Source: Mustelus asterias
Lineage: Eukaryota
DNA: 64,000 nt
Assembly: GCF_964213995.1 (NCBI RefSeq)
Contig: NC_135820.1
Span: 5,456,001-5,520,000, forward strand
Reading direction: 5' to 3'
Below the pieces are notes generated by a model, which was given only the letters and a program-made list of their open reading frames with translations, did no database searches and was not told where the DNA came from. Positions 7,901 to 47,400 of this stretch are shown in pieces. The position numbers were made by a program, and so were the translations under genes. The stretch's first letter is position 1, and the number at the start of each line of letters is the position of its first letter.

Positions 7901-10016
7901 AATCGAGGGATTGAGTTTCGGAGTCCAGGGATAATGATGCAGCTATATAAGACCCTAATCAGACCCCACTTGGAGTACTGTGCTCAGTTCTGGTCGCCTC
8001 ACTATAGGAAGGATGTGGAAAAGATTGAAAGGGTGCAGAGGAGATTTACAAGGATGTTGCCTGGATTGAGTGGCATGCCTTATGAGGATAGGCTGAGGGA
8101 GCTCAGTCTTTTCTCCTTGGAGAGACGAAGGATGAGAGGAGACCTAATAGAGGTGTATAAGATGTTGAGAGGCATAGATCGGGTGGACTCAGGGTGGAAA
8201 TGTCTGCTACGAGAGGACACAGGTTTAAGGTGCTGGGGGATAGGTACTGGGGAGATGTTAGGGTTAAGTTTTTCACACAGAGGGTGGTGGGCGAGTGGAA
8301 TCGGCTGCCGTCAGTGGTGGTGGAGGCGAACTCAGTGGGGTCTTTTAAGAGACCCCTGGATGAGTACATGGAGCTTAATAGGATGGAGGGTTATAGGTAG
8401 GTCTAGAAGGTAGGGATGTGTTCGGCACAACTTGTGGGCCGAAGGGCCTGTTTGTGCTGTAGTTTTTCTATGTTTCTATGTTTCCACACTGGATAATAAC
8501 ATTTTCTAAGGCATAAACATTCAGTGGGATCTCCCAGATAACCAGTCTTCAAAGCAAAGTTCTGACCTTAAGTTTTTTTGATGTTGTAAATTAATGGTTC
8601 CACTTTGCATTCGATGGTAACACTTTTGCGCACATTCAAAACCAATGAGATCTCCAAGGTAACATGCCTTTATCATAAAGTTAGGGCTCAGGTTGTGGGA
8701 CTCTCCTTGCCGGCTGAAAATTGGGTTCAAATCCCACTGCCGAGAATACATTAGGGCAGTGACACTTTATTAGTGATGAATCTGTTTGGGACGACCTCAG
8801 CTCATGAAAGGCGCTATTTAAATGCAGGACGCACTCCTGCCTTCATTAAACGGAGGGGTATTAACGACGGGATTCCTCCCATGTACTGACCGTGTGTCCC
8901 TCCATCCATTCAGAGTGTGAATCTACACTCAATGTTCAGTCTCGATTAAGGATTGTTTTTTGTTGTTGTTCTGTATAGTTCATTTTCCCAAATTACATTT
9001 AGTAAGTGGACAGCGGGGGGAATTTCTGCGGGTTTGGGATGTCAGTAACCTGTTTGAGTTCAGGTCAATAACATCACACACACCTGGATATGGTACACTG
9101 TACCACCTTGGAGTCGAAGCCTTTAACATTCGCCAATAGTAACAGCACACAATAACACCCTGCTCACTGAGAAAGCGGAATATAAACTCCTCACAAATGA
9201 ATGGAAAACCTACCCAGAATTGAGAGAGAGACAGGAATTTTCTGAAGGTGATTTTCGGCACTATTCCAGGGACTGGTCATCTTCACTCTGATGTAATAAT
9301 CCCCTTCATCTCCGCTCCTGATGTCCTTTATCAATAAGGAGAACTGTTTCTTTGCCACCTTTCCCTTCAGCTCAATTCTCCCTCTATATCCCGGGGCTGC
9401 TCTCCCCGGCTCTGCGGAATCATAGATAACAGAAACCCCAGGAGTACGAGGATCAGAACCCCCCTTCAGCCACAGAATCCGTGGATTGCTGTATGTGTCG
9501 GGATAATCAAATGTACACGGGATTTCTGCACACGAGCCTCTCACAGCCGTCACATTCCAGGGAATCCTCACAGACCATCGGGAACTATGGAGAACTGATA
9601 AACAAATATCCATTTCATTAATAATGAGCTGGCCAATGATAAACCGAATAAAATAATCCCAAAATTACAGCTCGCCACTGTTACATTTCCCTTGAAGCAT
9701 CCACTGTTATATATACATCGCCAACAATTACAACTCTGCAAGTTCCCATTGAAACGATTCAAATTTTAGTAAATATTTCATTCAAACACATTGAAGTCAG
9801 AATTCTGTCAATTCAGTAAAATACAGAATAGAATTTCCAATATGAGATGCATTACAGCCTCAACATTAAATACAAATTTTTAATTAACCATTCTTATCTC
9901 TGGACTTCATGAATATTTTATTTTATTCACCAGACGGATACACCCTCAATCGGAAATTATTAAAAGAATCTTGTACCTTGGATAAACATCAGGATGAGGG
10001 GAACACACTTCATCAT
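1682..10016 (-). CDS. Gene A: Siglec-like ectodomain (leader-V-C2-C2-C2), open reading frame, 3' part not identified in the window
   Basis: Exons 9977-10016, 9214-9594, 5592-5897, 3730-3987 and 1682-1945 are all phase 1 and open, and are a near-identical inverted copy of gene B exons 1-5. No TM exon was found in 1-1680. Confidence 0.75.
2028..2350 (+). mobile_element. HE1-type V-SINE (inverted paralog 51168-51487)
   Basis: A/B boxes, V-domain and TTCTATG tail. Confidence 0.88.
2631..2757. mobile_element. Possible MITE-like element (paralog about 50772-50897, related pieces about 52357-52482 and 52793-52932)
   Basis: GC-rich insert absent from the paralogous intron near 17700, bounded by imperfect inverted termini GCCGG(A/G)ATTTT...AAAATTCCAGC. 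Confidence 0.4.
3730..3987 (-). CDS. Gene A C2-set exon 2
   Basis: 258 nt open, TTTCAG| and |GTAAGT. Confidence 0.85.
4385..4676 (+). mobile_element. V-SINE variant with a different 3' tail (inverted paralog 48858-49150)
   Basis: Same head and V-domain, but ends GGCGACTAGGGGATTTTCAC...AATAAA. Confidence 0.8.
4881..5470 (-). mobile_element. Old CR1/HER1 3' fragment duplicated with the gene (also + at about 17020-17448, 33090-33517, 46805-47392)
   Basis: LYKTLVRPHLEYC...QRVVSVWN motif at the same position downstream of C2 exon 1 in four copies. Confidence 0.85.
5592..5897 (-). CDS. Gene A C2-set exon 1
   Basis: 306 nt open. The donor is T|GTCGGT, weaker than GTAGGT in gene B. Confidence 0.82.
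6395..8482 (+). mobile_element. 5'-truncated CR1/HER1 LINE, specific to gene A intron 2
   Basis: RT motifs (KSPGPDG, YRPVSLTS, DFSKAFD, GVPQGSVLGP, FADD), a frameshift near 7820 and a (TTCTATG)n tail. The paralogous site near 41700 is empty. Confidence 0.95.
9214..9594 (-). CDS. Gene A V-set exon V1 (open, E-strand Cys replaced by Phe)
   Basis: 381 nt with intact splice sites. YYIRV is kept, but KQFSLL replaces KQCSLL. Confidence 0.85.
9977..10016 (-). CDS. Gene A leader exon L1
   Basis: MMKCVPLILMFIQ + G|GTACAA, same as L6. Confidence 0.78.
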
Positions 10017-10794
10017 AATCATCACTACAGAAGGTTCACCATTGTAGGAAGGAACTGATTTCAGATTAAAACCTGGTGCTGAATTCCAGACGCTGCTAAT
10101 CGATTGCTGATCGATTACAATGGAATCGGAGCTGCTGGGCACCCCCTCATTGGGAATCGATTTAACCTCGCACAGTTTGGCAATCTCACTCCCTCTCAGC
10201 GACCGCCACTAGCTGTCTCAGACAGCGACAGCATGGAGCTGGGCAGTAATGTGTTACTCACACAGTTAGTGGGTGCAATGGTGCCAAACTAGTGACAAAG
10301 GCTCACCAACTGATAATGAACCCTTCATTGTGATCGGCTGTTCAGATAACAGGACAGGAACAAACATTTTAGACTGGAAAACCAAAAATAGCCCAGCAGC
10401 GCACAAGCTTCAGCCCGCTGTCTCACACATCTTTCTCTACTTTTCAGTCAGTACGCTCTGAATGTGATGTTGTGGTTATTTCTGTAACCGCTGCTTGCAA
10501 ATAAGTCGCTTCGCACCTTCAAACTTTTGCGCCAAAACATGTATCTTAAACGTCAATGGGACGTAAGCATTTTCTCGCACTAAATACTCGGAAAGACCAT
10601 GAGAGGGGAGGCTATTGTAGAGTGGTATTGTCACTAGTGGTACTGTCACTCACCATCTGACTTGGAAATACAGTCACCAAAGGCCAGAACAATGCTCTAT
10701 TCGAATCCCACCACAGATTCAATAAACTCTGGAACTAAAAATCTAATGACCATGAAACCATTGTTGAAACGTCCTGTCGGGGAGGAAATGTCCC

Positions 10795-11240
10795 ACAACA
10801 CCAGGTTAAAGTCCAACAGGTTTATTTGGTAGCAAATATCATAAGCTTTCGGAGCGATGCCCCTTCGTCAGATGGAGTAGTTATCTGTTCTCCAACAGTA
10901 CACAGACACAGAAATCAAGTTACAGAATACTAATTAGAATGCAAATCTCTACAGCCAGCCAGGTCTTAAAAGGTACAGATAATGTGGGTTCCCTCCACCC
11001 ACATTATCTGTACCTTTTAAGACCTAGCTGGCTGTAGAGATTTGCATTCTAATTAGTATTTTGTAACTTGATTTCTGTGTCTGTGTACTGTTGGAGAACA
11101 GATAACTACTCCATCTGACGACAGGGGATCGCTCCGAAAGCTTATGGTATTTGCTACCAAATAAACCTGTTGGACTTTAACCTGGTGTTGTGAGACTTCT
11201 TACTGTGCTTACCCTAGTCCAACGCCGGCATCTCCACATC
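10795..11240. mobile_element. Penelope-like element family 1, hairpin insertion
   Basis: Inverted arms of about 195 bp centred near 10990, 3' tail CCGGCATCTCCACATC, hammerhead motif in each arm. Confidence 0.8.
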
Positions 11241-12261
11241 GGGAAGGAACTGTGCCACCCTTACCAGGCCTGGCTTACATCTGGCTCCAGACCCACAACA
11301 CCAATGGAATTGACTCTTAACCGTCCCCCTCAAATGCCTTTAGCAAACTTAACCCCCAAAATAAAGCACAAGTCAATGTCCTTTAGGGAAGGAAATTTGC
11401 CGTCCTTACCTGGTCTGGCCTACATGTGACTCCAGAGCCACGGCAATGTGGTTGACTCTCAACTGCCCTCAGTCAATTGGGGATGGGCACTAAATGCTGG
11501 CCAACCAGTGTCGCCCATGTCCCATGAAGGAATGAAAATAAAATAGTTCCAGAACCAACAATGGGATCTGGAGAAAAAACAATTTGAAGAGGATTATTGT
11601 ACGGCTGGGATTAATTGGACTGAATTTCATTTTGTCAAATGTTAGAATTAACACATGAGGTCACATCGAAAAGTAGCAGATTAACTGCGGAAAAGTATTT
11701 GCTGAGAAAATGCTTACGTCCCATTGACGTTTAAGATACATGTTTTGGCGCCAAAGTTTGAAGGTGCGAAGGCCACTTATTTACAAGCAGCGGTTACAGA
11801 AATAACCACAACATCACATTCAGAGCGCATTGACTGAAAAGTAGAGAAAGATGTGTGAGATAGCGGGCAGAAGCTTGTGTGCTGGGCTATTTCTGGTTTT
11901 CCAGTCTAAAATGTTTGTTCCTGTCCTGTTATCTGAACAGCCGATCACAATGAAGAGTTCATTCTCAGTTGGTGAGCCTTTGTCACTAGTTTGGCACCAT
12001 TGCACCCACTAACTGTGTGAGTAACACATTACTGCCCAGCTCCATGCTGTCGCTATGTGAGACAGCTAGTGGCGGTCACTGAGAGAGAGTGAGATTGTCA
12101 AACTGTGCGAGGTTAAATCGATTCCCAATGAGGCGGTGCCCAGCAGCTCCGATTCCATTGTAATCGATCAGCGATCGATTAGCAGCGACTGGAATTCAGC
12201 ACCAAGTTTTAATCTGAAATCAGTTCCTTCCTACAATGGTGAACCTTCTGTAGTGATGATT

Positions 12262-15200
12262 ATGATGAAGTGTGTTCCCCTCATCCTGACGTTTATCCAA
12301 AGTACAAGATTCTTTTAATAATTTCCGATTGAGGGTGTATCCGCCTAGTGAATAAAATAACATATTCATTACTTATAGAGATAAGAATGGTTAATTAAAG
12401 ACTTGTAAATTAATGTTGAGGCAGTAATGCATCTCATATTGGAAATTCTATTCTGTATTTTACTGAATTGACAGAATTCTGACTTCAATGTGTTTGAGTG
12501 AAATATTTACTAGAATTTGAATCGTTTCAATGGGAACTTGCAGAGTTGTAATTGTTGGCGATGTATATATAACAGTGGATGCTTCAAGGGAAATGTAACA
12601 GTGCTGAGCTGTAATTTTGGGATTATTCTATTTGGTTTATCATTGGTCAGCTCATTATTTATGAAATGGATATGTGTTTATCAGTTCTCCATAGTTCCCG
12701 ATGGTCTGTGAGGATTCCCTGGAATGTGACGGCTGTGAGAGGCTCGTGTGCAGAAATCCCGTGTACATTTGATTATCCCGACACATACAGCAATCCGCGG
12801 ATTCTGTGGTTGAAGGGGGGTTCTGATCCTCGTACCCCTGGGGTTTCTGTTATCTATGATTCCGCAGAGCCAGAGAGAGCAGCCCCGGGATATAGAGGGA
12901 GAATTGAGCTGAAGGGAAATGTGACAGGGAAACAGTGCTCCTAATTGACAAAGGACCTCAGGAGGGGGGAAGGAGGGGATTATTACATCAGAGTGAAGAT
13001 GACCACTCCCTGGAATAGTGCCGAAGATCACCTTCAGAAAATTCCTGTCTCTCTCCCAATTCTAGGTATGTTTTCCATTCATTTGTGAGGAGTTTATATT
13101 CCGCTTTCTCAGTGAGCAGGGTGTCATTGTGTGCTGTTACTGTTGGCGAATGTTAAAGGCTTCAGCTCCAGGGTTGGTACAGTGAACCATATCCAGATGT
13201 GTTTGATTGTATTGACCTCAACACAAGTTCTAGAGAGGTTGAGGAAAGAATTGCGGAGTCAATCCTGCTTAGGAGTGAAAGTAATAGGGCAATTGTTATG
13301 GGGGATTTTAACTTGACTAATATTGACTGGAATTGTTATAGCTCTAGCTCGTTAGAGGGGTCAGTTTTTGTTCAAAGCGTGCAGGAAGGTTTTTTGACTC
13401 AGTATGTAGACAGGCCAACTAGAGGTGAGGCTATATTGGATCTGGTGCTGGGAAATGAGCCAGACCAGGTGCTAGACTTGGAAGTTGGTGTGCATTTTGG
13501 TGATAGTGACCACAATTCGGTTACGTTCACCTTAGTGATGGAAAGGGATAGGCATGAACCTCGGGCCAGTGGTTTTAGCTGGGGGAAGGGTAATTATGAG
13601 GCTATTAGGAGAGAATTAGGAAACATAGGTTGGACTAGGAGATTACAGGGACTGGGAACGTCCGACATGTGGAGTTTTTTCAAGGAGCAGCTACTGCGAG
13701 TCTGTGATAGGTATGTCCCTGTCAGGCAAGGAGGAATTGGTAGGGCTAGGGAACCGTGGTGCACCAAAAAAGTTTCTTTGTTGGTTAAAAAGAAAAAGGA
13801 GGCTTATGTTCGGATGAGACGTGAGCACTCGGGTAGTGCACTAGAAAGCTTTAGATTGGCTAAGAGGGAGTTGAAGAGCGAGCTTAGAAGGGCTAAAAGG
13901 GGACATGAGAAGACTTTGGCGGATAGGGTTAAAGAGAATCCTAAGGCGTTCTATAGGTATGTCAAGAACAGAAGGTTGGTTAGGGCAAGTTTAGGGCCAG
14001 TTATAGATGGCAGAGGGAAGTTATGTGTGGAACCGGAGGAGATTGGTGAAGCATTGAACCAATATTTCTCTTCGGTGTTCACGCAAGGGGACATGAATAT
14101 AGCTGAGGAGGACACTGGGTTGCAAGGGAGTAGAATAGACAGTATTACAGTTGATAAGGAGGATGTGCAGGATATTCTGGAGGGTCTGAAAATAGATAAA
14201 TCCCCTGGTCCGGATGGGATTTATCCAAGGATTCTCTGGGAGGCAAGAGAAGTGATTGCAGAGCCTCTGGCTCTGATCTTCAGGTCGTCGTTGGCCTCTG
14301 GTATAGTACCAGAAGATTGGAGGTTAGCGAATGTTGTCCCATTGTTTAAGAAGGGGAACAGAGACTTCCCCGGGAATTATAGACCGGTGAGTCTCACTTC
14401 TGTTGTCGGCAAGATGTTGGAAAAAATTATAAGGGATAGGATTTATAGTTATTTGGAGAGTAATGAATTGATAGGTGATAGTCAGCATGGTTTTGTGGCA
14501 GGTAGGTCGTGCCTTACTAACCTTATTGAGTTTTTTGAGAAAGTGACCAAGGAGGTGGATGGGGGCAAGGCAGTGGACGTGGTATATATGGATTTTAGTA
14601 AGGCGTTTGATAAGGTTCACCATGGTAGGCTTCTGCAGAAAATGCAGATGTATGGGATTGGGGGTGATCTAGGAAATTGGATCAGGAATTGGCTAGCGGA
14701 TAGGAAACAGAGGGTGGTGGTTGATAGTAAATATTCATCATGGAGTGCGGTTACAAGTGGTGTACCTCAGGGATCTGTTTTGGGGCCACTGCTGTTTGTA
14801 ATATTTATTAATGATCTGGATGAGGGTATAGTTGGGTGGATTAGCAAATTTGCTGATGACACCAAAGTCGGTGGTGTGGTAGACAGTGAGGAAGGGTGTC
14901 GTAGTTTGCAGGAAGACTTAGACAGGTTGCAAAGTTGGGCCGAGAGGTGGCGGATGGAGTTTAATGCGGAGAAGTGTGAGGTAATTCACTTTGGTAGGAA
15001 TAACAGATGTGTTGAGTATAGGGCTAACGGGAGGACTTTGAATAGTGTGGAGGAGCAGAGGGATCTAGGTGTATGTGTGCATAGATCCCTGAAAGTTGGG
15101 AATCAAGTAGATAAGGTTGTTAAGAAGGCATATGGTGTCTTGGCGTTTATTGGTAGGGGGATTGAATTTAGGAGTCGTAGCGTTATGTTGCAACTGTACA

Positions 15201-16897
15201 CAACTCTGGTGCGGCCGCACTTGGAGTACTGTGTGCAGTTCTGGTCCCCACATTACAGGAAGGATGTGGAGGCTTTGGAGAGGGTGCAGAGGAGGTTTAC
15301 CAGGATGTTGCCTGGTATGGAGGGGAGATCCTATGAGGAGAGGCTGAGGGATTTGGGATTGTTTTCGCTGGAAAGGCGGCGGCTAAGAGGGGATCTTATT
15401 GAAACATATAAGATGATTAGAGGTTTAGATAGGGTGGATAGTGATAGCCTTTTTCCTCTGATGGAGAAATCCAGCACGAGGGGGCATGGCTTTAAATTGA
15501 GGGGGGGTAGTTATAGAACCGATGTCAGGGGTAGGTTCTTTACCCAGAGGGTGGTGAGGGATTGGAATGCCCTGCCAGCATCAGTAGTAAATGCGCCTAG
15601 TTTGGGGGCGTTTAAGAGATCCGTAGATAGGTTCATGGACGAAAAGAAATTGGTTTAGGTTGGAGGGTCACAGTTTTTTTTTTTAACTGGTCGGTGCAAC
15701 ATCGTGGGCCGAAGGGCCTGTTCTGCGCTGTAATGTTCTATGTTCTATGTTCTATGTTCAAACAGGTTATTGACATTCCAAACCCGCAGAAATTCCCGCC
15801 GCTGTCCACATACTAAATGTAACTTGGGAAAAGATTTGGAACTACACAGAACAACGAAAAACAACCCTTAATAGAGACTGAACATTGAGTGAAGGTTCAC
15901 ACTCTGAATGGACAGGAAGGTGCACACGGTCAGTACATAGGAGGAATTCCGTCGCCAATTCCCCCCGATTTTCCGTTTAATGAAGGTAGGAGTGTGTCCT
16001 GCATGTAAATAGCACATTTCATGAGCTGAGGTCGTTCCAAACAGATTCATCACTAATAAAGTGTCACTGCCCTAATGTACTCACACTCTCGGCAGTGAGA
16101 TTTGAACCCACTTTTCAGCCGGAGAGGCGAGTCCCAGAACCTGAGCCCTAACGTTTGTTCAAGGCAAGTTACCTTGGAGATCCCATTGGCCGTGATACAG
16201 AGCCGGAAAGTGTTACCATCGAATGCAAAGTGGCAACATTAATTTACAATATCAAAAAAACTTAAATCCAGAACCTTGCTTTGAAGACAGGTTATCTGGG
16301 AGATCCCACTGAATGTTAATGTCCTGGAAACTCCAGTGTGGAGTGAAAAATCCATGGATAATGTCCAAACCTCCCTCAGAAAATAGAATTCAATATTAAT
16401 AAAATGTTTCCAAGGCAAGGACAAGAAACTGAATGAGGGGAAATATCATTCCCAGGTCGAGTAAACAGACTGGTGTTTACTGAATTGTGTTCAAAGGGGG
16501 AAGGATGTTTTTCTATTTTTCTATTTTATCCAGTTTTACCCGTTAATTATTACCCTGTCTGGTCAGGACCAGGGCATCCAGAGACACTTCTGACAAATAA
16601 TGTGATACAACCCGGGACAGTTGATGGCTGGAAAACCAGTCCAGTTCACCTGCTCACTCACCCAGAGTTGTTCAGTTCCAGAGTTTAAACTGGAGTGGAT
16701 TGGAGAAGAATCTCCCATTCTGCCGGGCGCTCTAACTTCACAACACACCAGGAACAGTTTGGAGGATTCCTGGACGGTTTCATCAACTTTCTCCTTCACC
16801 CCATCACTGGATCAGCATGGGGAATCCCTGACCTGTAAACTCATCAGTGGCGATGGGCAGACAACTGTCCAAGAATCTCTGAGACTGGATGTGCAGT
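12262..16897 (+). pseudogene. Cassette 2: L2 (12262-12301), V2 (12685-13065), 5'-deleted C2 exon 1 (16611-16897)
   Basis: V2 has a TTA>TAA nonsense codon at 12942-12944. The C2 exon has lost its acceptor and first codons. No downstream + strand exons of its own. Confidence 0.88.
13220..15758 (+). mobile_element. 5'-truncated CR1 LINE with an uninterrupted ORF2 (partial APE, RT, C-terminus)
   Basis: ORF 13199-15658 has GDFN, GDSDH and a complete RT, followed by a (TTCTATG)n tail. Confidence 0.96.
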
Positions 16898-19014
16898 GTA
16901 GGTATCTGCGCTGGGATTTATTCAATCACCCTGACGGTAAATCAGATCAGAATCTGTCTGAGTCTCGCCTGGAAAACTGAACATTTGTAAAACTGAGATT
17001 GCGAGATTTCATTTTTAAGTTGTGACGTGTTGTTGAAGTTGTACAAGACATTCGTACGGCCACACTCGGAACACTGTTTACAGTTCTGTTCACCGTATTA
17101 CATAAATAATATTATTAAACTGGAAAGAGTGCAGAAAAGATTTACTAGGATGCTGACGGGACTTGATAGTTTGAGTTATAAGGAGAGGCTGGATAGACTG
17201 GGACTTTCTTCCCTGGAGGGTAGGAGGGTTAGGGGTGACCTTATAGATGTCTATAAAATAATGAGGGGCATAGGTAAGGTAGATAGTCAACACCTTTTCC
17301 CAAAGGTCGGGCAGTCTAAAACTGGAAGGCATAGGTTTAAGGTGAGAGGGGAGAGATACAAAAGGGCTCAGAGGGGCATTTTCTTCACTCAGAGAGTGTT
17401 GAGTGTCTGGAACGAGTTGCCAGAGGTAGTAGTAGAGGTGGGTAAAATAATGTATATACTATTTTAAATAAACCCAATAATCAAAAATAAACTGGTGGTG
17501 GGAGAGGGGTAGTGGGTCTGGCGGGGGGGGGGGGGGGGGGGGGGGTAGGGAGGTGTGACAGCCACTGGTGAGACACTGACAAAAATCGAAAACTTAAAGG
17601 GGACTTACAAAATCAGATTACAATGTCCTTCCCAGCCCCAATGGTGCCTATTGTCACAAAAGCAATAATTTATACTACTGACATTGGAATAATAAATCAT
17701 CCTAAATCACTCCAGAGGCATACTTGCAAACAGAAGTTGAGACCAGCTACATAAGGAGATGTCTCAGAGGGCAACCACCAAACAGGGTAAGGGCCTGATT
17801 TTAAGCGGTATCTCAAAGGAGGAGAGTAGCTCGACAGAATGTCGAGGATGGGGAATTTAAAACATTTGCGCCCAAGTGACTAAAGTCCTGGCTGGCAATG
17901 ATCCAGTCATTAAAGTCTGGGGTGTACAAGAGACCCAGAGGCACGAAGGGAACATATTGCTGCCTCTGTATTTGCCACACATCCCACCTAATCTGAAATA
18001 TATTTCCAAGGACCGGGTTGGGTTATTCCATCAGTTGGCCCACTTTCTCCCATTTTCCCTGACCTTTCTGGGAATATTCCTGACACTGGCCCCTGTGGTG
18101 ATTGTTGTGTTGACATTGGGGAATATCATACACGTTACAATTCATGGGAGTGACATTATTGATGTCCCTGTGTGTATTGAAGGGTCCCACTCATCACTTA
18201 CATTGCACGGAGATGTGTGTGGAACTCCTGGCGGTGCCCAGATTATTTGCAGCCTCGCACCAATATTCCCTTCATCTTCAGAACTCACATTGTGAATGAA
18301 GAGCTTCAGCTCCGCGGCGGGAGAGTTGCTGATCTCTACCCCACGTTGACTCAATGTTAAATTGACTGGGGGGATCCCTGAGCTTTGCAATACAATAAGA
18401 ATGAACTTTCTTCCACTGATACTATAGAGGTGTTGAGGATTGGTTTGCAAAGTGCACCTGAAACCACAAGTTTGTTGGTGCTATAAGAAAATGAAGATTA
18501 AAATTTAAAAAAATAAGTTTCCCTCAGTGTCACCAAACAGGTGCTGGTTTGTTGCAACCTGGGGATTTTCACAGTGACTTAATTGCAGTGTTAATGTAAG
18601 CCTACTTGTGACACTAATAAATAAATAATTCTTCACTTCAGTTAATTGTTTAATTACCTGGCTGAACTTCTAATCAATAAACCCATTAACTCCAAAGGCC
18701 ATTCTTCCCAGATTGAGAGTTCTTAACTTTCCCAATGGTGTAGAACACAATTTTAGCATCAAGACCAACACCCCAGCAGCTTCACACAGAAACTAATGAT
18801 CATTTGATTTTCTGACTTGCACGATATCAACGGTTAGCAATGTAGAAGGACAACATCTCACCAACATTCAATCAGATTACTCTCTCTATCTAATGTTGTA
18901 AAATTATTCATTTCTGATTTGAGAACAATTCAGCTCAATGTAATTTAGCTCAGAGGATAACATAGGTTTAGTTTCAGTAACACATGGGGAGGGAAGAGTT
19001 AAAATTATTCTTAC

Positions 19015-22377: not shown

Positions 22378-22792
22378 AAGGCGGCCTTCACGACACACGA
22401 CAGCGCAGAGTCGCTGAGCAGAAACTGATAGCCAAGTTCCGCACACATGAGGACGGCCTAAACCGGGATGTTGGATTCGTGTCACATTATGAGTAACCCC
22501 CACAGCTTGCCTCCTGGACTTGCAGGCTGTCCTGTCTGGAGACAATACACATCTCTTTAACCTGTGCTTAATGCTCCCTCCACCCACATTGTCTGTATCT
22601 TTAAGACCTGGCTGGTTGTAGGGATTCGCATTCTAATCAGTATTCTGTAACTTGATTTTGTGTTTCTGTGCACTGTTTTAGAGCACATTTCCACTCCATC
22701 TGATGAAGGAGCAGCGCTCCGAAAGCTTATGGTATTTGTTACCAAATAAACCTGTTGGACTTTAACCTGGTGTTGTTAAAACTCTTACTGTG
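22378..22792 (+). mobile_element. Penelope-like element family 1, 3' fragment
   Basis: Encodes QGGLHDTRQRRVAEQKLIAKFRTHEDGLNRDVGF*, resembling a GIY-YIG C-terminus (R..E..I...T..GLN), followed by a pLTR with a hammerhead motif. Confidence 0.8.
22696..22732 (+). ncRNA. Minimal type I hammerhead ribozyme motif
   Basis: CCAT-CTGATGA-A-GGAGC-AGC-GCTCC-GAAA-GC-TTA-TGG: both core boxes, a 5-bp stem II, palindromic AAGCTT stem III and a CCA/TGG stem I. Confidence 0.75.
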
Positions 22793-35598: not shown

Positions 35599-37870
35599 GA
35601 AACATAGAAACATAGAAAAACTACAGCACAAAACAGGCCCTTCGGCCCCACAAGTTGTGCCGAACATATCTCTACCTTTTAGGCCTACCTATGACCCACC
35701 ATCCTATTAAGCCCCATGTACTCATCCAGGAGTCTCTTAAAAGACCCTATTGAGTTTGCCTCCACCACCACTGACGGCAGCCGATTCCACTCGCCCACCA
35801 CCCTCTGTGTGAAAAACTTCCCCCTAATATTTCCCCTGTACCTGCCCCCCAGCACCTTAAACCTGTGTCCTCTCGTGGCAGCCATTTCCACCCTGGGAAA
35901 AAGTCTCTGAGAGTCCACCCGATCTATGCCTCTCAACATCTTATACACCTCTATTAGGTCTCCTCTCATTCTACGTCTCTCCAAGGATAAAAGACCGAGC
36001 TCCCTCAGCCTATCCTCATAAGGCATGCCACTCAATCCAGGCAACATCCTTGTAAATCTCCTCAGCACCCTTTCAATCTTTTCCACATCCTTCCTGTAAT
36101 GAGGTGACCAGAACTGAGCACAGTACTCCAAGTGGGTCTGACGAGGGTCTTATATAGCTGCATCATTATCCCCGGACTCCGAAACTCAATCCCTCAATTG
36201 ATAAAGGCCAGCACACCATACGCCTCTTAACCAACTCCTCCACCTGCGGGGCCAATTTTAGAGTCCTATGGACCCGGACCCCAAGGTCCTTCTGATCCTC
36301 GACAGTACTAAGAGTCTTTCCCTTTATATCGTACTCCTTCATCTCATTTGACCTGCCAAAATGGACCACTACGCATTTATCTGAGTTGAAGTCCATCTAC
36401 CACTTCTCCGCCCAGTCTTGCATCCTACTTATGTCCCTCTGTAACTTCTGACATCCCTCCAGACTATCCACAACCCCACCAACCTTCGTGTCGTTGGCAA
36501 ACTTACCAACCCATCCCTCTGCTTCCTCATCCAGGTCATTTATGAAAATGACAAACAGCAAGGGTCCCAGAACAGACCCCTGGGGCACACCACTGGTGAC
36601 CGACCTCCATTTAGAAAAAGACCCATCTGTACCCACTCTCTGCCTCCTTTGGGCAAGCCAGTTCTGGATTCACAGGGCAGCAGCCCCTTGGATCCCATGC
36701 CCTCTCACTTTTTCTAGAAGCCTTGCATGGGGGACCTTATCAAACGCCTTGCTAAAATCCATATAAACCACATCTAACATTTTCCCTTCGTCAATGTGTT
36801 TAGTCACATTTTTGAAGAACTCCACCAGGCTCGTAAGGCACGACCTGCCTTTGACAAAGCCATGCTGAGTATTCTTGAGCATACTAAACCTCTCTAAATG
36901 CTCATAAATCTTGTCCCTCAGGATCTTCTCCATCAGCTTACCAACCACTGAGGTTAGACTCACCGGTCAGTAATTTCCTGGGCTATCCCTATTCTCCTTC
37001 TTGAAAATAGGAACCACATCCGCAATCCTCCAATCCTCCGGCACCTCTCCCGTCTCCATCGACGATGCAAAGATCATCACCAGAGGCTCTGCAATCTCTT
37101 CCCTTGCCTCCCACAGTAACCTGGGGTACATCCCATCCGGACCCGGCGACTTATCTATTTGATGCATTCAAAGATTCCAGTACAACCTCTTTGTTAAAGT
37201 CCACATACTCAATCTTTTCAGTCCACCGCAAGCCCGCAGTACATCCACCCAGGTCCTTCTCCTCCGTGAAAACCGAGGCAAAATACTCATTCAGCACCTC
37301 TGCCATTTCTACTGGTTCCGTACAGACTTTCCCGCCTTCACCTTTTATAGGCCCTATTCCTTCACGTCTCATCCTTTTACTTTTCACATATTTATAGAAC
37401 GCCTTAGGGTTTTCCTTAATCCTACCTGCCAGGGCCTTCTCGTGACCCCTTCTGGCTCTCCTAATTTCCTTCTTTAGTCCCTTCCTACAAGCCGTATACT
37501 CATCTAGATCCCTATCTTCGCCAAGCTCTCTAAATCTTTTGTACGCTTTCCTTTTCTTCTCGACTAGGTCCCGCACAGCTTTCATGCACCATGGTTCCTT
37601 TAACCTACCAACTCCTCCCTATCTGCTCGGAATGTTGTCCTGTAGAACTCTAGACAGACATTCCTTGAAAAACTGCCACCTGTCTTCAGTACATTTCCCC
37701 GAGAATACCTCCTTCCAATTTACTCCTCTAATTTGCTGCCTTATGTCTTCATATTTCCCCTTACTCCATATAAACACTTTCCTAGTTTGCCTGATCCTCT
37801 CTTTTTCCAAGGCAAGCATAAAGGAGATAGAGTTATGATCGCTATCCCCAAGATGCTCTTCCACTGAGAG
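35599..37870 (-). mobile_element. 5'-truncated CR1/HER1 LINE
   Basis: Fragmented ORF2 with RT motifs and a CATAGAA tail. Empty paralogous site near 19558. Confidence 0.95.
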
Positions 37871-40212
37871 ATATTCCAAGCATTTAGTTAAAAATGCAGA
37901 AGCGGCAGTGATGGAATTTGAATGTTCATGACCTGCTTAACAGTGACATCATGTTTCAATATAAGAACAAACAATGCAACATCGAATTTGGAATATAATT
38001 AACAAGCCTGAGATAACATCAGATCCAAGGGCCCTGGATTTGATATTATCAAGATGCTTTGGTATTTATGTCACAGATAATACAAGAAAGGAATGGCATC
38101 TTAAGATTGTGCCATATCGGTGGCAATCAGATATTCAGAATCATAGAATCACAGAATCCCACAGTGCAGGAGAGGCCCCTCGGCCCATCGAGTCTGCACT
38201 GATGCACAAAATGCCCTGCTCAGTGGTTGGTAAGCTGATGGAGAAGATCCTGAGGGACAAGATTTATGAGCATTTAGAGAGGTTTAGTATGCTCAAGAAT
38301 ACTCCCACTTGCCAGCACTTGGCCTATAGCCTGATGGACATTGGAATGGACCAATAGAAACATCACTATGTCACTATAGAGTGGTGAATTTGTGGAACTC
38401 TTTGTCGCAGAAGGCTGTGGAGGCCAGGTCATTGAGTGTCTTTAAGACAGAGATAGATAGGTTCTTGATTAATAAGGGGATCAGGGGTTATGGGGAAAAG
38501 ACAGGAAAATGGAGGTGAGAAAAAAAATCAGCCATGATTGAATGGTGGAGCAGACTCGATGGGCTGAGTGGCCTAATTCTGCTCCTATGTCTCATGATCT
38601 TATATTGGGTGGCATATTGCAATTGACTACGATATTTGACATGGTAAAGAATGACAATTTAACATGCAATGAAATTGAATTAAACTAAAGACTTAAAGAA
38701 GGAAAAAAGTATAATTGTATTTTTTTTGAATGACTTGATTTGATTTATTATTGTCACATATATTAGCATGCAGTGAAAAGTATTGTTTCTTGCACGCAAT
38801 ACAGACAAACCATATTGATCCTCGAGAATGAAAGGAGAGAGTGCAGAATGTAGTCTTATAGTCAGAGCTAGGGTGTAGAGAAAGGTCAACGTAATGCAAG
38901 TTAAGTCCATTCAAAAGTCTGACAGCAGTTGGGAAGAAGCTGTTCTTGAGTCGGTTGGTACATGACCTCAGACTTTTGTATCTTTTTCCCGATGGAAGAA
39001 GGTGGAAGAGAGAATGTCCGGGGTGCGTGGAGTCCTTAATTATGCTGGCTACTTTGCCGAGGCAGCAGGAAGTGTAGACAGAATCAATGGATGGGAGGCT
39101 GGTTTGCGTGATGGATTGGGCTACATTCACAACCTTTTTGTAGTTTCTTGCTGTGTTGGGCAGAGCAGGAGCCATACCAAGCTGTGATACAACCAGAAAT
39201 AATGCTTTCTATGGTGCATCTGTAAAAATTGGTGAGAGTCACAAGGTTGGGATTTTTGGAAGGCTTAGTGGTATTCTGTAGCTTGGCAATCTGAGGATTT
39301 CCCTTTGGTCATTTTTTATGTTCTTGTCTGTCTATGTAAGTTTTATATGTTTTTTAAAATAAATATTGATACGCTTTCAAACCGAAGAATTTTGCCTTTG
39401 CGAGATTTAATTTTCAAAATATTTAGTTTTTCTAAGGAAACAGGCCGCCATTCGAAAGATCCCCACTTCAAGCAACCAGTGGGATAATAGTGGGTTAGAA
39501 GCAAACTCATTGAACGACCAATATCACTCCGTGTGTCAGCGACAATAGGAATGGCGAAGAGTTTGATTGATAGACAACGGGGAGAAGCGACCTCCAGCCC
39601 TTACAAATAGATTATGGCGGCTCAGTACTTTCGTGGCGGTTGGTGTCGCTGTGCTTAAAAATGAAATCCCGCCCGCAATCACAGTTTTACAAATGTTCAG
39701 TTTTCCAGGCGAGACTCAGACAGATTCTGATTTACCGGCAGGGTGGTTGAATAAATCCCAGCGCAGATACCTACACTGCACATCCAGTCTCAGAGATTCT
39801 TGGACAGTTGTCTGCCCATCGCCACTGATGAGTTTACAGGTCAGAGATTCCCCATGCTGATCCAGTGATGGGGTGAAGGAGAAAGTTAATGAAACCATCC
39901 AGGAATCCTCCAAACTGTTCCTGGTGTGTTGTGAAGTTAGAGCGCCCGGCAGAAAGGGAGATTCTTCTCCAATCCACTCCAGTTTAAGCTCTGGAACTGA
40001 ACAACTCTGGGTGAGTGAGCAGGTGAACTGAGCTGGTTTTCCAGCTATCAACTGTCCCGGGACTGAGATCCGCAGTTTGTCTGTAAGGAACAGAGGAAAT
40101 TCGAGTTACCCAAGATTCCAACCAGAGAATGCGTTGAGCTTCACTGGAACATTGCAGCAAGACAAGGACTTGCTCCCATGCCCACATGTCTATCCTTGGC
40201 TTGCTGCAATGT

Positions 40213-40977
40213 CTGTTCTCCAACAGTGCACAGAGACACAACATCAAGTTACAGAATACTAATTAGAATGCAAATCTCTACAGCCAGCCAGGTCTTAAAG
40301 GTACAGATAATGTGGGTGGAGGGAACATTAAACACAGGTTAAAGAGATGTGTATTGTCTCCAGACAGAACAGCTAGTAAGATTCTGCAAGATCAGGAGGC
40401 AAGCTGTGGGGGTTACTGATAATGTGACATAAATCCAACATCCCGGTTTAGGCCGTCCTCATGTGTGCGGAACTTGGCTATCAGTTTCTGCTCAGTGACT
40501 CTGCGCTGTTGTGTGTCGTGAAGGCCGCCTTCGACACATGACAGCGCAGAGTCGCTGAGCAGAAACTGATAGCCAAGTTCCGCACACATGAGGACGGCCT
40601 AAACCGGGATGTTGGATTTATGTCACATTATCAGTAACCCCCACAGCTTGCCTCCTGATCTTGCAGAATCTTACTAGCTGTTCTGTCTGGAGACAATACA
40701 CATCTCTTTAACCTGTGTTTAATGTTCCCTCCACCCACATTATCTGTACCTTTAAGACCTGGCTGGCTGTAGAGATTTGCATTCTAATTAGTATTCTGTA
40801 ACTTGATGTTGTGTCTCTGTGCACTGTTGGAGAACAGATTTTCACTCCATCTGATGAAGGGGCAGCGCTCCGAAAGCTTATGGTATTTGCTACCAAATAA
40901 ACCTGTTGGACTTTAACCTGGTGTTGTGAGACTTCTTACCGTGCTTACCCCAGTCCAACGCAGGCATCTCCACATCA
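40213..40977. mobile_element. Penelope-like element family 1, large hairpin insertion
   Basis: Inverted arms of about 310 bp. 12-bp TSD TTGCTGCAATGT at 40201-40212 and 40978-40989. Empty site at 21992-22003. Confidence 0.88.
40847..40883 (+). ncRNA. Minimal hammerhead ribozyme motif
   Basis: CCAT-CTGATGA-A-GGGGC-AGC-GCTCC-GAAAGCTTA-TGG. Confidence 0.7.
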
Positions 40978-43658
40978 TTGCTGCAATGTTCCAGTGAAGC
41001 TCAATGTAAACTGGAGGAACAGCATCTCATCTTCCGGCTCGGCACTTTACAACCTTCCAGTCTCAACATCGAATTCAACAACTTCAGATGATTTGCTCGA
41101 CCCCTCCTCGACCCCTTTGTTATCATTCCATTTTATTTAATTTTTTACTGTTCTCTAATTTTTATTTCTTTATTGTCTTTCTTCATTTTTATCTCCCCCA
41201 CCTTTCCTTCCCTCTACTTCATCCCCCATTTCTCCCTCCCGCTTACCCTTTTCTACATTCTACCTCTGCCCCATTCCACCCCGCTCCCCACTCAAAATCT
41301 CCATCTGTCACAGTTTACAGCTTTTCCGCCGCTTGGCCATTCACACCCTTTCTGCTCTCTGGGAATAGCTATTAGCAGTATTTCCCCCTGGTTTCTATGG
41401 CTATGACTCATCTTTCATTCCCTCCCCCTGCAGTATAAATATCTCCCACTTTCTATGCCTTTTAGCTTTGACGAAGGGTCATCTAGACTCGAAACGTCAC
41501 CTCTTTTCTCTTCTTACAGATTCTGCCAGACATGCTGAGATTTTTCAGCTTTTCTCTTTTGCTTAAACTCCAGTCTGTTTCCTCTACCTGGGAGCTATAT
41601 TTACCCTCATTCAGTTTCTTGTCCTTGCCTTGGGAACATTTTATTAACGTTGAATTCTATTTTCTGAGGGAGGTTTGGATATTATCCATGGATCTTTCAC
41701 TCCACACTGGATAATGACATTTTCTCGGACATTAACATTCAGTGGGATCTTGCAGTCTTCAAAGCAAAGTTCTGACATTACGTTTTTTTGATATTGCGAA
41801 TTAATGTTTCCACTTTGTATTCAATGGCAACACTTTCCGGCTCTGTATCACGCCCATTCACAGCCAATGGGATCTCCAAAGTAACTTGCCTTGAACAAAA
41901 GTTGGGGCTCAGGTTGTGGGACTCTCCGGCTGAAAAGTGGGTTCAAATCCCACTGCCAAGAGTGTGAGTACATTAGGGCAGTGAAACTTTATTAGTGATG
42001 AATCTGTTTGGAACGATCTCAGCTCATGAAAGGCGCTATTTAAATACAGGACGCACTCCTGCCTTCATTAAACGGAGGGGTATTAACGACGGGATTCCTC
42101 CCATGTACTGACCGTGTGCACCTTCCTGTCCATTCAGAGTGTGAACCTTCAGTCAATGTTCAGTCTCTATTAAGGGTTGTTTTTTGTTGTTGTTCTGGAC
42201 AGTTCCAAACCTTTTCCCAAGTTGTACTTAGTAACTGGACAGCAGCGGGGATTCCTGCGGGTTTGCAATGTCAGTAACCTGTTTGAGTTCAGGTCAATAA
42301 CATCACACACACCTGGATATGGTTCACTGTACCAACCCTGGAGCTGAAGCCTTTAACATTCGCCAACAGTAACAGCACACAATGACACCCTGCTCACTGA
42401 GAAAGCGGAATATAAACTCCTCACAAATGAATGGAAAACCTACCCAGAATTGAGAGAGAGACAGGAATTTTCTGAAGGTGATCTTCTGCTCTATCCCAGG
42501 GAGTGGTCATCTTCACTCTGATGTAATAATCCCCTCCATCCCCCCTCTTGAAGTCCTTTATCAATAAGGAGAACTGTTTCTCTGTCACCTTTCCCTTCAG
42601 CTCAATTCTCCCTGCTGCTCTCTCTAGCTCTGCGGAATCAGAGATAACAGAAACCACAGGGGTACGAGGATCAGAACCCCCCTTCAGCCACAGAATCCAC
42701 GGATTGCTGTATGTGTCGGGATAATCAAATACGCACGGGATTTCGGCACACGAGCCGTCACATTCCAGGGAATCCTCACAGACCATCGGGAACTATGGAG
42801 AACTGATAAACAAATATCCATTTCATAAATAATGAGCTGGCCAATGATAAACCGAATAAAATAATCCCAAAATTATAGCTCAGCACTGTTACATTTCCCT
42901 TGAAGCATCCACTGTTATATATACATCGCCAACAATTACAACTCTGCAAGTTCCCATTGAAACTATTCAAATTCTAGGAAATATTTCATTCAAACACATT
43001 GAAGTCAGAATTCTGTCAATTCAGTAAAATACCGAATAGAATTTCCAATATGAGATGCATCACAGCCTCAACATTAAATACAAATTTTTAGTTAACCATT
43101 CCTATCTCTGGAGGTCATGAATATTTTATTTCATTCACTAGACGGATACACCCTCAATCGGAAATTATTAAAAGAATCTTGTACCTTGGATAAACATCAG
43201 GATGAGGGGAACACACTTCATCATAATCATCACGACAGAAGGTTCACCATTGTAGGAAGGAACTGATTTCAGATTAAAACCTGGTGCTGAATTCCAGTCG
43301 CTGCTAATCGATTGCTGATCGATTACAATGGAATCGGAGCTGCTGGGCACCCCCTCATTGGGAATCGATTTAACCTCGCACAGTTTGGCAATCTCACTCC
43401 CTCTCAGTGACCGCCACTAGCTGTCTCAGACAGCGGCAGCATGGAGCTGGGCAGTAATGTGTTACTCACACAGTTAGTGGGTGCAATGGTGCCAAACTAG
43501 CGACAAAGGCTCACCAACTGACAATGAACCCTTCATTGTGATCGGCTGCACAGACAACAGGACAGGAACAAACATTTTAGACTGGAAAACCAAAAATAGC
43601 CCAGCACACAAGCTGTTCTGGCTAAAAATCCTGAAGGTGCGAAGGCCACTTATTTGCA

Positions 43659-43896
43659 CAGTAAGAAGTTTAACAACACCAGGTTAAAGTCCAACAGGTT
43701 TATTTGGTAGCAAAAGCCACACAAGCTTTCGGAGCTGCAAGCCCCTTCTTCAGGTGAGAAGAACTTGAAGAAGGGGCTTGCAGCTCTGAACGCTTGTGTG
43801 GCTTTTGCTACCAAATAAACCTGTTGGACTTTAACCTGGTGTTGTTAAACTTCTTACTGTGTTTACCCCAGTCCAACGCCGGCATCTCCACATCAT
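43659..43896. mobile_element. Penelope-like hairpin insertion in the pair-3 spacer
   Basis: Inverted arms of about 95 bp plus the conserved tail. 12-bp TSD CACTTATTTGCA at 43647-43658 and 43897-43908. Confidence 0.85.
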
Positions 43897-43919
43897 CACT
43901 TATTTGCAAGCAGCGGTTA

Positions 43920-44424: not shown

Positions 44425-47400
44425 GTACAAGATTCTTTTAATAATTTCCGATTGAGGGTGTATCCGTCTCGTGAATAAAATAAAATATTCATGACCTCCA
44501 GAGATAAGAATGGTTAATTAAAAATTTGTATTTAATGTTGAGGTTGTAATGCAACTCATATTGGAAATTCTATTCTGTATTTTACTGAATTGACAGAATT
44601 CTGACTTCAATGTGTTTGAATGAAATATTTCCTAGAATTTGAATAGTTTCAATGGGAACTTGCAGAGTTGTAATTGTTGGCGATGTATATATAACAGTGG
44701 ATGCTTCAAGGGAAATGTAACAGTGCTGAGCTGTAATTTTGGGATTATTTTATTCGGTTTATCATTGGCTAGCTCATTATTAATGAAATGGATATTTGTT
44801 TATCAGTTCTCCATAGTTCCCGATGGTCTGTGAGGATTCCCTGGAATGTGACGGCTGTGAGAGGCTCGTGTGCAGAAATCCCGTGCACATTTGATTATCC
44901 CGACACATACAGCAATCCGCGGATTCTGTGGCTGAAGGGGGGTTCTGATCCTCATACCCGTGGGGTTTCTGTTATCTATGATTCCGCAGAGCCAGGGAGA
45001 GCAACCCCGGGATATAGAGGGAGAATTGAGCTGAAGGGAAATGTGACAGGGAAACAGTGCTCCTTATTGATAAAGGACTTCAGGAGCGGAGATGAAGGGG
45101 ATTATTACATCAGAGTGAAGATGACCAGCCCCTGGAATAGTGCCGAAAATCACCTTCAGAAAATTCCTGTCTCTCTCTCAATTCTGGGTAGGTTTTCCAT
45201 TCATTTATGAGGAGTTTATATTCCGCTTTCTCAGTGAATAGGGTGTTATTGTGTGCTGTTACTATTGGCGAATGTTAAAGGCTTCGACTCCAAGGTGGTA
45301 CAGTGAACCATATCCAGATGTGTTTGATGTTATTGACCTGAACTCAAACAGGTTACTGACATCCCAAACCCGCAGAAATTCCCCCCGCTGTCCACTTGCT
45401 AATTGTAATTTGGGAAATGGTTTGGAACTGCCCAGAACAAGAACAAAAAACGACCCTTAATAGAGACTGAACATTGAGTGTAGATTCACACTCTGAGTGG
45501 ATGGAGGGACACATGGTCAGTACATGGGAGGAATTCCGTCGTTAATACCCCTCCGTTTAATGAAGGCAGGAGTGTGTCCTGCATTTCAATAGCGCCTTTC
45601 ATGAGCTGAGATCGTTCCAAACAGATTCATCACTAATAAAGTCTCACTGCCCTAACGTACTCACGCAGTGGGATTCGAACCCACTTTTCAGCCGGGGAGT
45701 CCCACAACCTGAGCCCTAACTTTTGTTCAAGGCAAGTTACCTTGGAGATCCCATTGGTTTTGAATGGGCACGAAAGTGTTACCATCAAATGCAAATTGGA
45801 AACATTAATTCACAATATCAAAAAAACTTAATGTCAGAACTTTGCTTTGAAGATTGGTTATCTGGGAGACCCCACTGAATGTTAATGTCCTAGAAAATCC
45901 AGTGTGGAGTGAAAAATCCTTTGATAATGTCCAAACCACCCTCAGAAAACAGAATTCAACGTTAATAAAATGTTTCCAAGGCAAGGACAAGAAACTGAAT
46001 GAGGGTAAATATAGTTCCCAGGTCGAATAAACAGACTGGTGTTTAACAAATTGTGTTCAACGGGGGAAGGTTGTCTTTCTATTTGATCCAGTTTTCCCCG
46101 TTAATTATCACCCTGTCTGGTCAGGACCAGGGCATCCAGAGACAATTCTGACAAATAATGTGGTACATTCATTGGTCATTGGTCAATTCTTCAGAAAGAA
46201 GGGGGCAGCTTATTAACAGAATGAACTCGGGGAATTTAGGGATTTTTATCTGTAGCCAATAACAGAGAATAATCAGATAATCGATTTATTAATGTGATTA
46301 TTTCTTTGACTTTCCTCTCCTCTCATTCGGTTTTGTAAGTTGGAATCTTGGGTAACTCGAATTTCCTCTGTTCCCGACAGAGAAACTGCGGATCTCAGTC
46401 CCGGGACAGTTGATAGCTGGAAAACCAGCCCGGTTCACCTGCTCACTCACCCAGAGTTGTTCAGTTCCGGAGTTTAAACTGGAGTGGATTGGAGAAGAAT
46501 CTCCCATTCTGCCGGGAGCTCTAACTTCACAACACACCAGGAACAGTTTGGAGGATTCCTGGACGGTTTCATCAACTTTCTCCTTCACCCCATCACTGGA
46601 TCAGCATGGGGAATCCCTGACCTGTAAACTCATCAGTGGCGATGGGCAGACAACTGTCCAAGAATCTCTGAGACTGGATGTGCAGTGTAGGTATCTGCGC
46701 TGGGATTTATTCAATCACCCTGACGGTAAATCAGAATCTGTCTGAGTCTCGCCTGGAAAACTGAACATTTGTAAAACTGAGATTGCGAGATTTCATTTTT
46801 AAGTTGTGACGTCTTGTTGAAGTTGTACAAGACATTGGTCAGGCCACACTTGGAATACTGTTTATAGTTCTGGTCACTCTATTATGGAAAAGATATTATT
46901 AAACTAGAAAGAGTGCAGAAAAGATTAACCAGGATGCTACCGGGACTTGATAGTTTGAGTTATAAGGAGAGGCTGGAGAGACTGGGACTTTTTTCCCTGG
47001 AGGGTAGGAGGTTGAGGGGTGATTTTGTGGAAGTCTATAAAATAATGAGGGGCATAGATGAGTTAGATAGTCAACATCTTTTCCCAAAGGCAGGGGAGTC
47101 TAAAACTAGAGGGCAAAGTTTTAAGGTGAGAGGGGAGAGTTACAAAAATGTTCAGAGGGGCAATATTTTCACACAGAGGGTGGTGAGTGTCTGGAACAAT
47201 CTGCCAGAGGTAGTAGCAGAGGCGGGTACAATTTTGTCTTTTAAACAGCATTTGGACAGTTACATGGGTAAGATGGGTAGAGAGGGATATGGGCCAAATG
47301 TGGGCAATTGGGAGTAGCTTAGTGGTTAAAAACTGGGCAGCATGGGCAAGTTGGGCCAAAGGGCTTGTTTCCATGCTGTAAACCTCGATGACTAGGTGGA

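Follow-up and report, generated by a model that had tools for sequence, protein, structure and literature searches.

Gene conversion probably keeps a predicted activating and inhibitory Siglec pair alike in the shark Mustelus asterias

Results

We analysed a 64,000-nucleotide stretch of the Mustelus asterias genome (G000:C20:5456001-5520000, hereafter the window), which contains six copies of a leader-intron-V unit in alternating orientation. In each unit, a leader exon of 40 nt is separated by an intron of about 382 nt from an exon of 381 nt that encodes a V-type immunoglobulin (Ig) domain. V1 (9594-9214, minus strand) and V6 (44807-45187, plus strand) have an open frame. V2 (12685-13065, plus) contains an in-frame stop codon, and V3 (28170-27794, minus), V4 (31038-31412, plus) and V5 (42802-42444, minus) are frameshifted. 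A genome-wide DNA search for V units gave at least six matches, every one of them inside the window. A candidate acceptor at CATAG would break the reading frame, and we placed the acceptor at ATCAG, 10 nt upstream of it.

The V exons are Siglec-type V-set domains of a shark. The domain scores above the Pfam cut-offs for V-set (43.9 bits) and Ig_CD22 (36.3 bits), and mouse sialoadhesin is the top match by sequence among 39 solved sequences (E 5e-14, about 31% identity). Sialoadhesin is also the best fold match of the AlphaFold model of V6 (template modelling score 0.83; predicted local distance difference test 89), and the top Protein Data Bank matches by sequence and by fold are Siglecs. V6 agrees at 126 of 126 residues with P0001, labeled by its source as a Mustelus asterias Siglec; its NCBI name ‘Siglec 14’ is a similarity label, and P0001 itself carries immunoreceptor tyrosine-based inhibitory motifs (ITIMs). 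A conserved arginine in the F strand is given as a Siglec hallmark in the cited excerpt (PMC13324755). Arg116 of the shark domain aligns with the arginine of the sialoadhesin FRFE motif and is kept in V1, V2, V4, V5 and V6, with lysine in V3. Siglecs also possess an intra-sheet cysteine pair between the B and E strands and a third, inter-domain cysteine; V6 has Cys35, Cys40 and Cys98, and V1 has phenylalanine instead of Cys98. The Siglec order of an N-terminal V-set domain, C2-type domains, a membrane span and a tail is present in the exon path. At least 34 more Siglec-like V-domain matches (28-42% identity) occur in the genome, many clustered on the same contig (G000:C20:0.12-0.89 Mb, 5.79 Mb and 15.0-16.0 Mb) and others on C192 and C23.

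Two reading frames are complete, have canonical splice sites and lie in opposite orientation, their leaders being 34 kb apart. V6 belongs to gene I, of predicted inhibitory type, which runs on the plus strand from the leader exon L6 (44385-44424, GT donor, phase 1) through the intact V6 exon (Arg116, the three cysteines, sequons at codons 27 and 92), the C2-type exons a (46381-46686) and b (49524-49805) and the membrane-proximal Ig exon c (51568-51870) to a transmembrane exon (53585-53666) whose span contains no charged residue. The first cytoplasmic exon (57620-57707) encodes the ITIM-like VTYAAV, and the last exon (60936-61100) the ITIM VLYAAL, a distal tyrosine motif and the stop. All exons join in a single reading frame of 548 amino acids with AG/GT splice sites throughout. 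Exon c of gene I carries an internal duplication of about 27 nt, which adds sequons. The donor found in gene A and in other sharks is missing from it; the frame is preserved by a GTGAGT donor 13 nt further on, and the NCBI model P0001 takes different splice sites here.

The first-pass annotation had taken V6 as the only functional gene. This did not hold, since V1 likewise heads an open, splice-intact path of leader, V, three C2 exons and a transmembrane exon. This gene A, predicted to be activating, lies on the minus strand with its leader exon L1 at 9977-10016, the V1 exon at 9214-9594 (Arg116 kept, Cys98 replaced by Phe), the C2-type exons a (5592-5897) and b (3730-4011, with one extra cysteine) and the membrane-proximal Ig exon c at 1682-1945. 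Its transmembrane exon (G000:C20:5452000-5451901, minus) lies 4.0-4.1 kb before window base 1, has a canonical acceptor and the same end phase as that of gene I, and encodes an arginine near the outer end of the span in the sequence FPIR. The tail is short and free of ITIMs, extending at most about a dozen residues past the span in both tail models. A candidate last exon with a candidate acceptor at G000:C20:5437643-5437543, about 18.4 kb before the window, resembles the tail of a basking-shark protein (P0017); the match is in a frame that differs from the spliced frame, so that the tail given here is provisional. A genome search for a second copy of the arginine exon returned one match, the exon itself.

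Genes A and I share 94-98% identity across their four Ig exons. Excluding insertions resembling long interspersed nuclear elements (LINEs), the two arms are about 95% identical over about 7.9 kb, with values of 0.88-0.99 per 250 columns and then 0.79 and 0.52; homology to gene A stops abruptly at about 51867, where the last Ig exon ends, and the tails are unrelated. The LINE-like insertions, called by the appearance of the sequence, lie at 6398-8484, 13384-15754, 25225-27503, 35599-37872 and 47557-48813. They are unit-specific, sit in collinear introns and could date the duplications.

The four units between the intact genes are broken. L2-V2 (12262-13065, plus) has TAA at codon 100 and is followed by a C2a remnant without 5' end (about 16611-16896). 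L3-V3 (27794-28593, minus) has a 4-nt deletion and lysine for Arg116, with remnants of C2a (21884-21567, with a stop) and C2b (near 18480-18190, frameshifted). L4-V4 (30616-31412, plus) bears 2-nt and 4-nt deletions next to an open C2a (32648-32965), and L5-V5 (42444-43224, minus) a 10-nt frameshift and a 12-nt deletion, with open C2a (40093-39776) and C2b (34573-34286) exons. The region between genes A and I consists of repeats of a block that contains, in this order, C2b, C2a, V and L on the minus strand and L, V and C2a on the plus strand. Its two junctions are homologous: at 17448-17704 the end of a plus-strand C2a block meets a minus-strand C2b block, and the junction at about 33517-33793 matches the first with 88% over 525 columns. 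We infer from this layout that the middle of a head-to-head pair was duplicated twice, which would make V2-V5 broken copies. A piece upstream beside V2 (11345-11694) recurs inverted beside V3 (29502-29161, 95%) and not beside V4, which points to a flip of one head-to-head spacer. Near-perfect hairpins lie in the middle of the V1/V2 spacer (10790-11196) and of the V5/V6 spacer (43657-43861); they have 200-nt and 99-nt arms, a 7-nt loop and 97% complementarity, and related copies occur at 22378-22792 and 40212-40978. The upstream homology of V5 and V6 stops at the spacer hairpin. These hairpins may be akin to miniature inverted-repeat transposable elements and are possibly prone to breakage.

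Duplication of the centre predicts separate clades of minus-strand and plus-strand copies. The unit tree contradicts this: it groups V1 with V6 (support 100), V3 with V5 (100) and V2 with V4 (78), and all five tested trees that separate minus-strand from plus-strand copies were rejected (approximately unbiased test, p<=0.0015). The closest pair, V1 and V6, consists of the intact, oppositely oriented and most distant copies.

All eight variants that the first-pass annotation had described as shared between V exons were found in our alignment. These are KQF in V1 and V5 (45059 in V6 coordinates), RSG/TSP/ENH in V1 and V6, KDF in V5 and V6 (45079), GNVTG in V2 and V6, ERA(A) in V2 and V5, RAT in V3 and V6, ISD in V3 and V5, and an identical 4-nt deletion in V3 (minus) and V4 (plus), which stand apart in the background tree. 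V6 does share different patches with V1, V2, V3 and V5. The V1+V5, V5+V6 and V1+V6 splits are in conflict, as the annotation had noted: they are marked by transversions outside CpG sites at 45059, 45079 and 45087, within 29 nt, which fail the four-gamete test pairwise. This is part of the densest patchwork (45050-45128, plus), in which V1+V5 (45050-45078), V5+V6 (45060-45082) and V1+V6 (45080-45128) follow each other. Identical stretches of 12-77 nt flank eleven shared variants, which were chosen by us, and later mutations could have shortened these stretches. Inverted nearest neighbours share patches that cross the tree, namely the deletion in V3 and V4 and Phe105 in V5 and V6. V5 holds both derived phenylalanines found singly in V1 and V6, and this makes it at equal cost either a donor twice or a recipient twice. 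V6 also has private changes, H63 and R65, that occur in none of the other copies. The commonest split is V1+V6, with 19 of 82 informative sites. Just 3' of the V exon, a contig of another species carries the letters of V2-V5 at all five V1+V6 sites, and the V1+V6 states downstream of the exon therefore look derived.

Exchange between copies is well supported. In a core of 1,281 gap-free columns with 38 informative sites, 343 of 703 site pairs are incompatible (pairwise homoplasy index, PHI, p=0.009); the V exon by itself gave 88 of 171 pairs and p=0.027, and the Hudson-Kaplan minimum number of recombination events is 8 in the V exon and 15 in the core. PHI was not significant for the non-coding core sites alone (p=0.39) and borderline when six CpG transitions were left out (p=0.051). 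With blocks from intron 2 and the C2a region added to the core, 82 informative sites gave PHI p values between about 1e-4 and 3e-3 at five window sizes. The best of 105 trees requires 25 extra parsimony steps. The maxima were 12-20 steps in 600 simulations without recombination under the Hasegawa-Kishino-Yano model (with or without gamma-distributed rates) and 14-22 in 1,200 simulations with CpG rates raised 10-20 fold, and none of the 1,800 reached 25; for transversions only, 10 extra steps compare with at most 5 simulated. The signal is bounded by the ectodomain exons. Short-tract exchange between copies, which the first-pass annotation had read as gene conversion, is thus supported by these simulations, by PHI and by the short identical stretches. 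Of the tests it had suggested, the GENECONV-like search for longest identical runs gave a divided answer: two of 15 pairs reached p<0.05 without correction (V2-V4, p=0.003; V2-V5, p=0.017), and neither run lies within the V exon. A weak signal of this kind is expected as the tracts are short and old.

Variation had also been described as concentrated in the 3' half of the domain. This stood for codons 63-140 versus 14-62, with 34 of 231 versus 10 of 146 variable columns (p=0.021 at a boundary, codon 62/63, chosen post hoc), and not for exact halves (26 of 187 versus 18 of 190, p=0.20). Likewise, the density of informative sites differed from non-coding blocks for the 3' part (p=0.02) and not for the whole V exon (p=0.24), and conflicting sites were more frequent in the 3' V exon (11 of 217) than in non-coding sequence (26 of 1378, p=0.012). 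In a scan statistic, variable sites as a whole were not clustered (p=0.11, 0.38) and informative sites were (p=0.025, 0.007). The first 45 or so codons are not as invariant as had been stated: besides the ten variable columns there is the 10-nt deletion in V5, and the difference from non-coding sequence is not significant (p=0.23). Synonymous divergence is equal in the two parts (0.063 in 5', 0.066 in 3') and non-synonymous divergence is not (0.018 and 0.065), so that the contrast mainly reflects missing amino-acid change in the A-C strands. The proposed comparison of dN/dS by region, run here as the ratio of non-synonymous to synonymous divergence (pN/pS), separated the 5' part (0.28) from the 3' part (0.98); the ratio was 0.9 between V1 and V6 and never exceeded 1, giving no sign of positive selection. 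Overall, the 3' excess is modest and due mostly to constraint on the 5' part, the remainder of the V exon outside the A-C strands being near neutral.

On the predicted structure, the conflicting patches would map to the D-E turn, the E strand and the E-F loop. Residues S121 and N128, shared by V1 and V6, are modelled as flanking the F-G turn beside Arg116, and the private H63 and R65 of V6 as lying in the C-C' loop. Judging from the alignment with sialoadhesin and its structure, the F-G turn and C-C' loop regions would form the ligand face. GNVT had been said to add a sequon in V6. NVT at codon 92 is indeed a sequon in V6 and is missing from V1, but ‘adds’ is unsupported as both catshark relatives have GNLT; the V6 sequon may thus have been retained or regained. 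The contig of another species has a lysine-type letter at this site.

The tail of gene A has counterparts in other sharks. P0017, named a Cetorhinus maximus Siglec by its source, has the same type of tail with LPIR and without ITIM (44% over 39 amino acids, E 1e-9). P0004 of Scyliorhinus canicula starts with an antisense reading of the arginine exon (62.5% over 48 amino acids), in which the implied sense residue at the arginine position can only be lysine or arginine; this suggests from sequence that the catshark has the same head-to-head layout. Two of the public models look mis-assembled: P0003, in which the arginine exon is strung together with V5 and with C2 exons from several units, and P0004, with its antisense start. 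When a tree was built from the last Ig domain, with 15 rows selected from 26 proteins for a clear match, genes A and I grouped together (100/99) and P0017 grouped with two Carcharodon (white shark) proteins (100/98) rather than with gene A. Two proteins of S. torazame (cloudy catshark), whose contigs have equal lengths, are 95% identical to each other, and one of them has no annotated membrane span. Ectodomains are thus near-identical within a lineage, more so than between lineages. Concerted evolution is expected to leave this combination of apparently old, shared tails and ectodomains specific to each lineage. In P0004, P0006, P0008 and P0009 from catshark and horn shark the F-strand arginine is replaced by threonine or alanine, and these orthologues may therefore not bind sialic acid in the canonical way.

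Discussion

Genes A and I are likely an activating and an inhibitory Siglec arranged head to head, with V1 and V6 as the predicted ligand-binding exons: in sequence, gene I offers VTYAAV and VLYAAL, and gene A a transmembrane arginine and a short tail without ITIM. The explanation that we favor, with a probability of roughly 0.7, is that germ-line gene conversion between inverted copies keeps the two genes alike and that the inner copies trade patches. An old inverted pair would have existed first, since the arginine tail is common to the basking-shark protein and, in antisense, to the catshark model. Its centre may then have been duplicated twice as the block described above, and the inner copies would have decayed because they were cut off from a tail. 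By looping out, inverted copies could pair and pass on tracts measuring tens of bases; between V1 and V6 the events would have been longer or repeated, and one crossover or more may have flipped a spacer. Selection would fix the A-C strands and tolerate change in the D-E-F-G part. By analogy with known pairs, the purpose could be that an activating decoy matches the inhibitory receptor which pathogens exploit. The arginine of gene A would bind an adaptor of the FcR-gamma or CD3-zeta type, as suggested by the arginine itself and by two adaptor exons in the genome, which we take to be of the zeta/gamma type.

Several observations weigh against this interpretation. Cys98, present in all full-length close relatives in alignment A1, is lost from V1, and exon b of gene A has an extra cysteine; gene A may therefore be an allele in decay, in this individual or in the species. 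Contigs from four sequencing runs covered the introns and contained no splice joint and hence no RNA support for either gene; X3 and X4 had been picked from them as possible RNA, and intron coverage is uninformative for or against expression. The NxxR motif is absent, as both gene A (FPIR) and P0017 (LPIR) have the arginine and not the asparagine. The arginine tail was found in sense in one of 26 fetched proteins from other species (P0017), and a search with the 37-residue arginine exon against 1.84 billion representatives matched only the window's own model P0003. The V1-V6 pair has no individual long stretch of identity that reaches significance (p=0.75). The site at 45318, which lies outside the counted block, and two of the 82 informative sites fit a split by orientation. 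Finally, the outgroup contig on which the polarity of the V1+V6 states depends may be a collapse of paralogues, and the comparison covers 40 of 265 difference rows.

A bolder version of this scenario strikes us as unlikely, if worth stating: an ancient shark activating/inhibitory pair, independent of the primate pairs and wired through FcR-gamma-type adaptors, in which the broken copies would be a working reservoir that makes germ-line alleles. Micro-conversions and segment flips would in that case place patches or whole V halves on either tail.

Conversion templated by pseudogenes diversifies chicken immunoglobulins and trypanosome variant surface glycoproteins (VSGs), and by analogy V2-V5 could be donor cassettes that feed patches one-way into the expressed gene or genes and thereby vary the ligand-binding domain, much as the first-pass annotation implied. 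The short shared tracts of 12-77 nt, the different patches that V6 shares with V1, V2, V3 and V5, the two phenylalanines of V5 and the higher density of conflicting sites in the 3' V exon would all agree with such a system, and conversion from SIGLEC16P into SIGLEC11 is documented in the cited excerpt (PMC5701461). However, the flow from pseudogenes into the functional gene that had been inferred does not follow from the six sequences: for every shared derived state the two directions are equally parsimonious, and the C-C' loop changes of V6 are private. The introns are full of conflicting sites too, pN/pS stays at 0.98 in the 3' part and 0.9 between V1 and V6, and most conflicting patches are predicted at a distance from Arg116, in the E-F loop and the D-E strands, whereas the sites adjacent to Arg116 are shared by V1 and V6. 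The strongest signal is homogenization of V1 and V6 rather than diversification, and the supposed donors, which have leaders and C2 exons of their own, resemble common leftovers of duplication. The cassette systems, in which the expressed exon varies somatically or clonally, have a single expressed acceptor, silent donors and one-way flow, in contrast to the two intact genes and the predominant V1+V6 split found here. We consider this explanation improbable.

Equally doubtful at best, the mosaics could mainly stem from reciprocal crossovers, that is segment flips, and from duplication of alleles that were already recombinant. The V3-V4 spacer is inverted relative to that of V1-V2, two spacers hold hairpin elements, and six units of 92-96% identity in alternating orientation favor inversions. 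Nevertheless, eight obligate exchange points per 381-nt exon would require many crossovers, and flips swap flanks and cannot equalize V1 and V6 over 7.9 kb with the tails still unrelated.

It is very improbable that mutation recurred at hot spots, on a tree close to a star in shape, and produced the conflicting splits with no need for exchange: the internal branches are short, six of 38 informative core sites are CpG transitions whose removal brings PHI to its borderline value, the non-coding core sites alone are not significant and the 4-nt deletion adjoins a TC repeat, but the simulations never reached the observed 25 steps, transversion homoplasy was at least twice the simulated maximum and PHI on the 82 sites was p<=0.003 at all five window sizes. 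An assembly artefact, in which collapsed or chimeric haplotypes yield false copies or mosaics, is hardly credible even for six similar inverted copies within 36 kb that are hard to assemble, as divergence between the copies is 4-8% and their LINE insertions are distinct, letters specific to single copies recur in X1 contigs, as does the 4-nt deletion (X1 is possibly from the source sample and so not independent), and V2- and V4-like pieces are present in X3 and X4. One X3 contig that combines letters of the V6 intron with the V1/V2/V4 letter at 44886 was excluded, since contigs of this kind may be chimeras across collapsed repeats.

Conversion between the members of the pair, our preferred explanation, has its closest parallel in primates. 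SIGLEC11 and SIGLEC16 are likewise head-to-head inhibitory and activating genes whose ectodomain exons were converted per lineage, with relaxed constraint on the converted exons and a non-functional copy that can donate; the possible decay of gene A can be likened to SIGLEC16P (PMC5701461, excerpt). The shark genes need not be orthologues of these, the best solved match of the shark V domain being sialoadhesin at about 31% identity. The alike region spans four Ig exons and 7.9 kb in the shark, compared with about 3 kb in primates according to the same excerpt, and in the shark four broken units separate the leaders, which lie 34 kb apart, and tracts of tens of bases are visible. In humans, Siglec-5 together with Siglec-14 is also named as a pair (PMC13324755, excerpt). 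They resemble the shark genes in having near-identical V-set domains with opposite signalling, which in the shark is predicted. In the human pair, the activating partner has an arginine in the membrane span and uses the adaptor DAP12, and the genes lie in tandem, unlike the inverted shark pair.

The paired ceacam genes of Xenopus likewise combine opposite orientation of inhibitory and activating genes with conversion of the ligand-binding exon, followed by non-synonymous changes in the CC'C''FG face that may be compared with H63 and R65 of V6. They belong to another family, and the cited excerpt describes conversion only in the N exon and activating members with their own motifs resembling the immunoreceptor tyrosine-based activation motif (PMC5112662). 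Receptors that associate with FcR-gamma through an N-terminal transmembrane arginine include LILRA2, PIR-A, NKp46, GPVI, OSCAR, FcaR and XFL of Xenopus; gene A has in common with them the arginine near the outer end of the span and the short tail without ITIM, and differs in that FPIR, like LPIR of P0017, does not contain the asparagine of NxxR (PMC2413239, excerpt). A full-text literature search on shark Siglecs, which covered few subscription journals, found no paper on a shark Siglec pair, and a search on transmembrane arginine with paired receptors gave no match.

Mosaicism by itself is nothing unusual in tandem gene clusters that are young, and paired Siglecs homogenized by conversion are already known in primates. 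The six-copy layout described here records conversion tracts in unusually fine detail and illustrates how a damaging change, such as the loss of Cys98, may pass from a broken copy to a gene that works. Should the shark pair be expressed, cartilaginous fish would have the same design, with a tail common to two shark orders, and activating Siglecs would have been invented repeatedly and independently or would have a far older origin.

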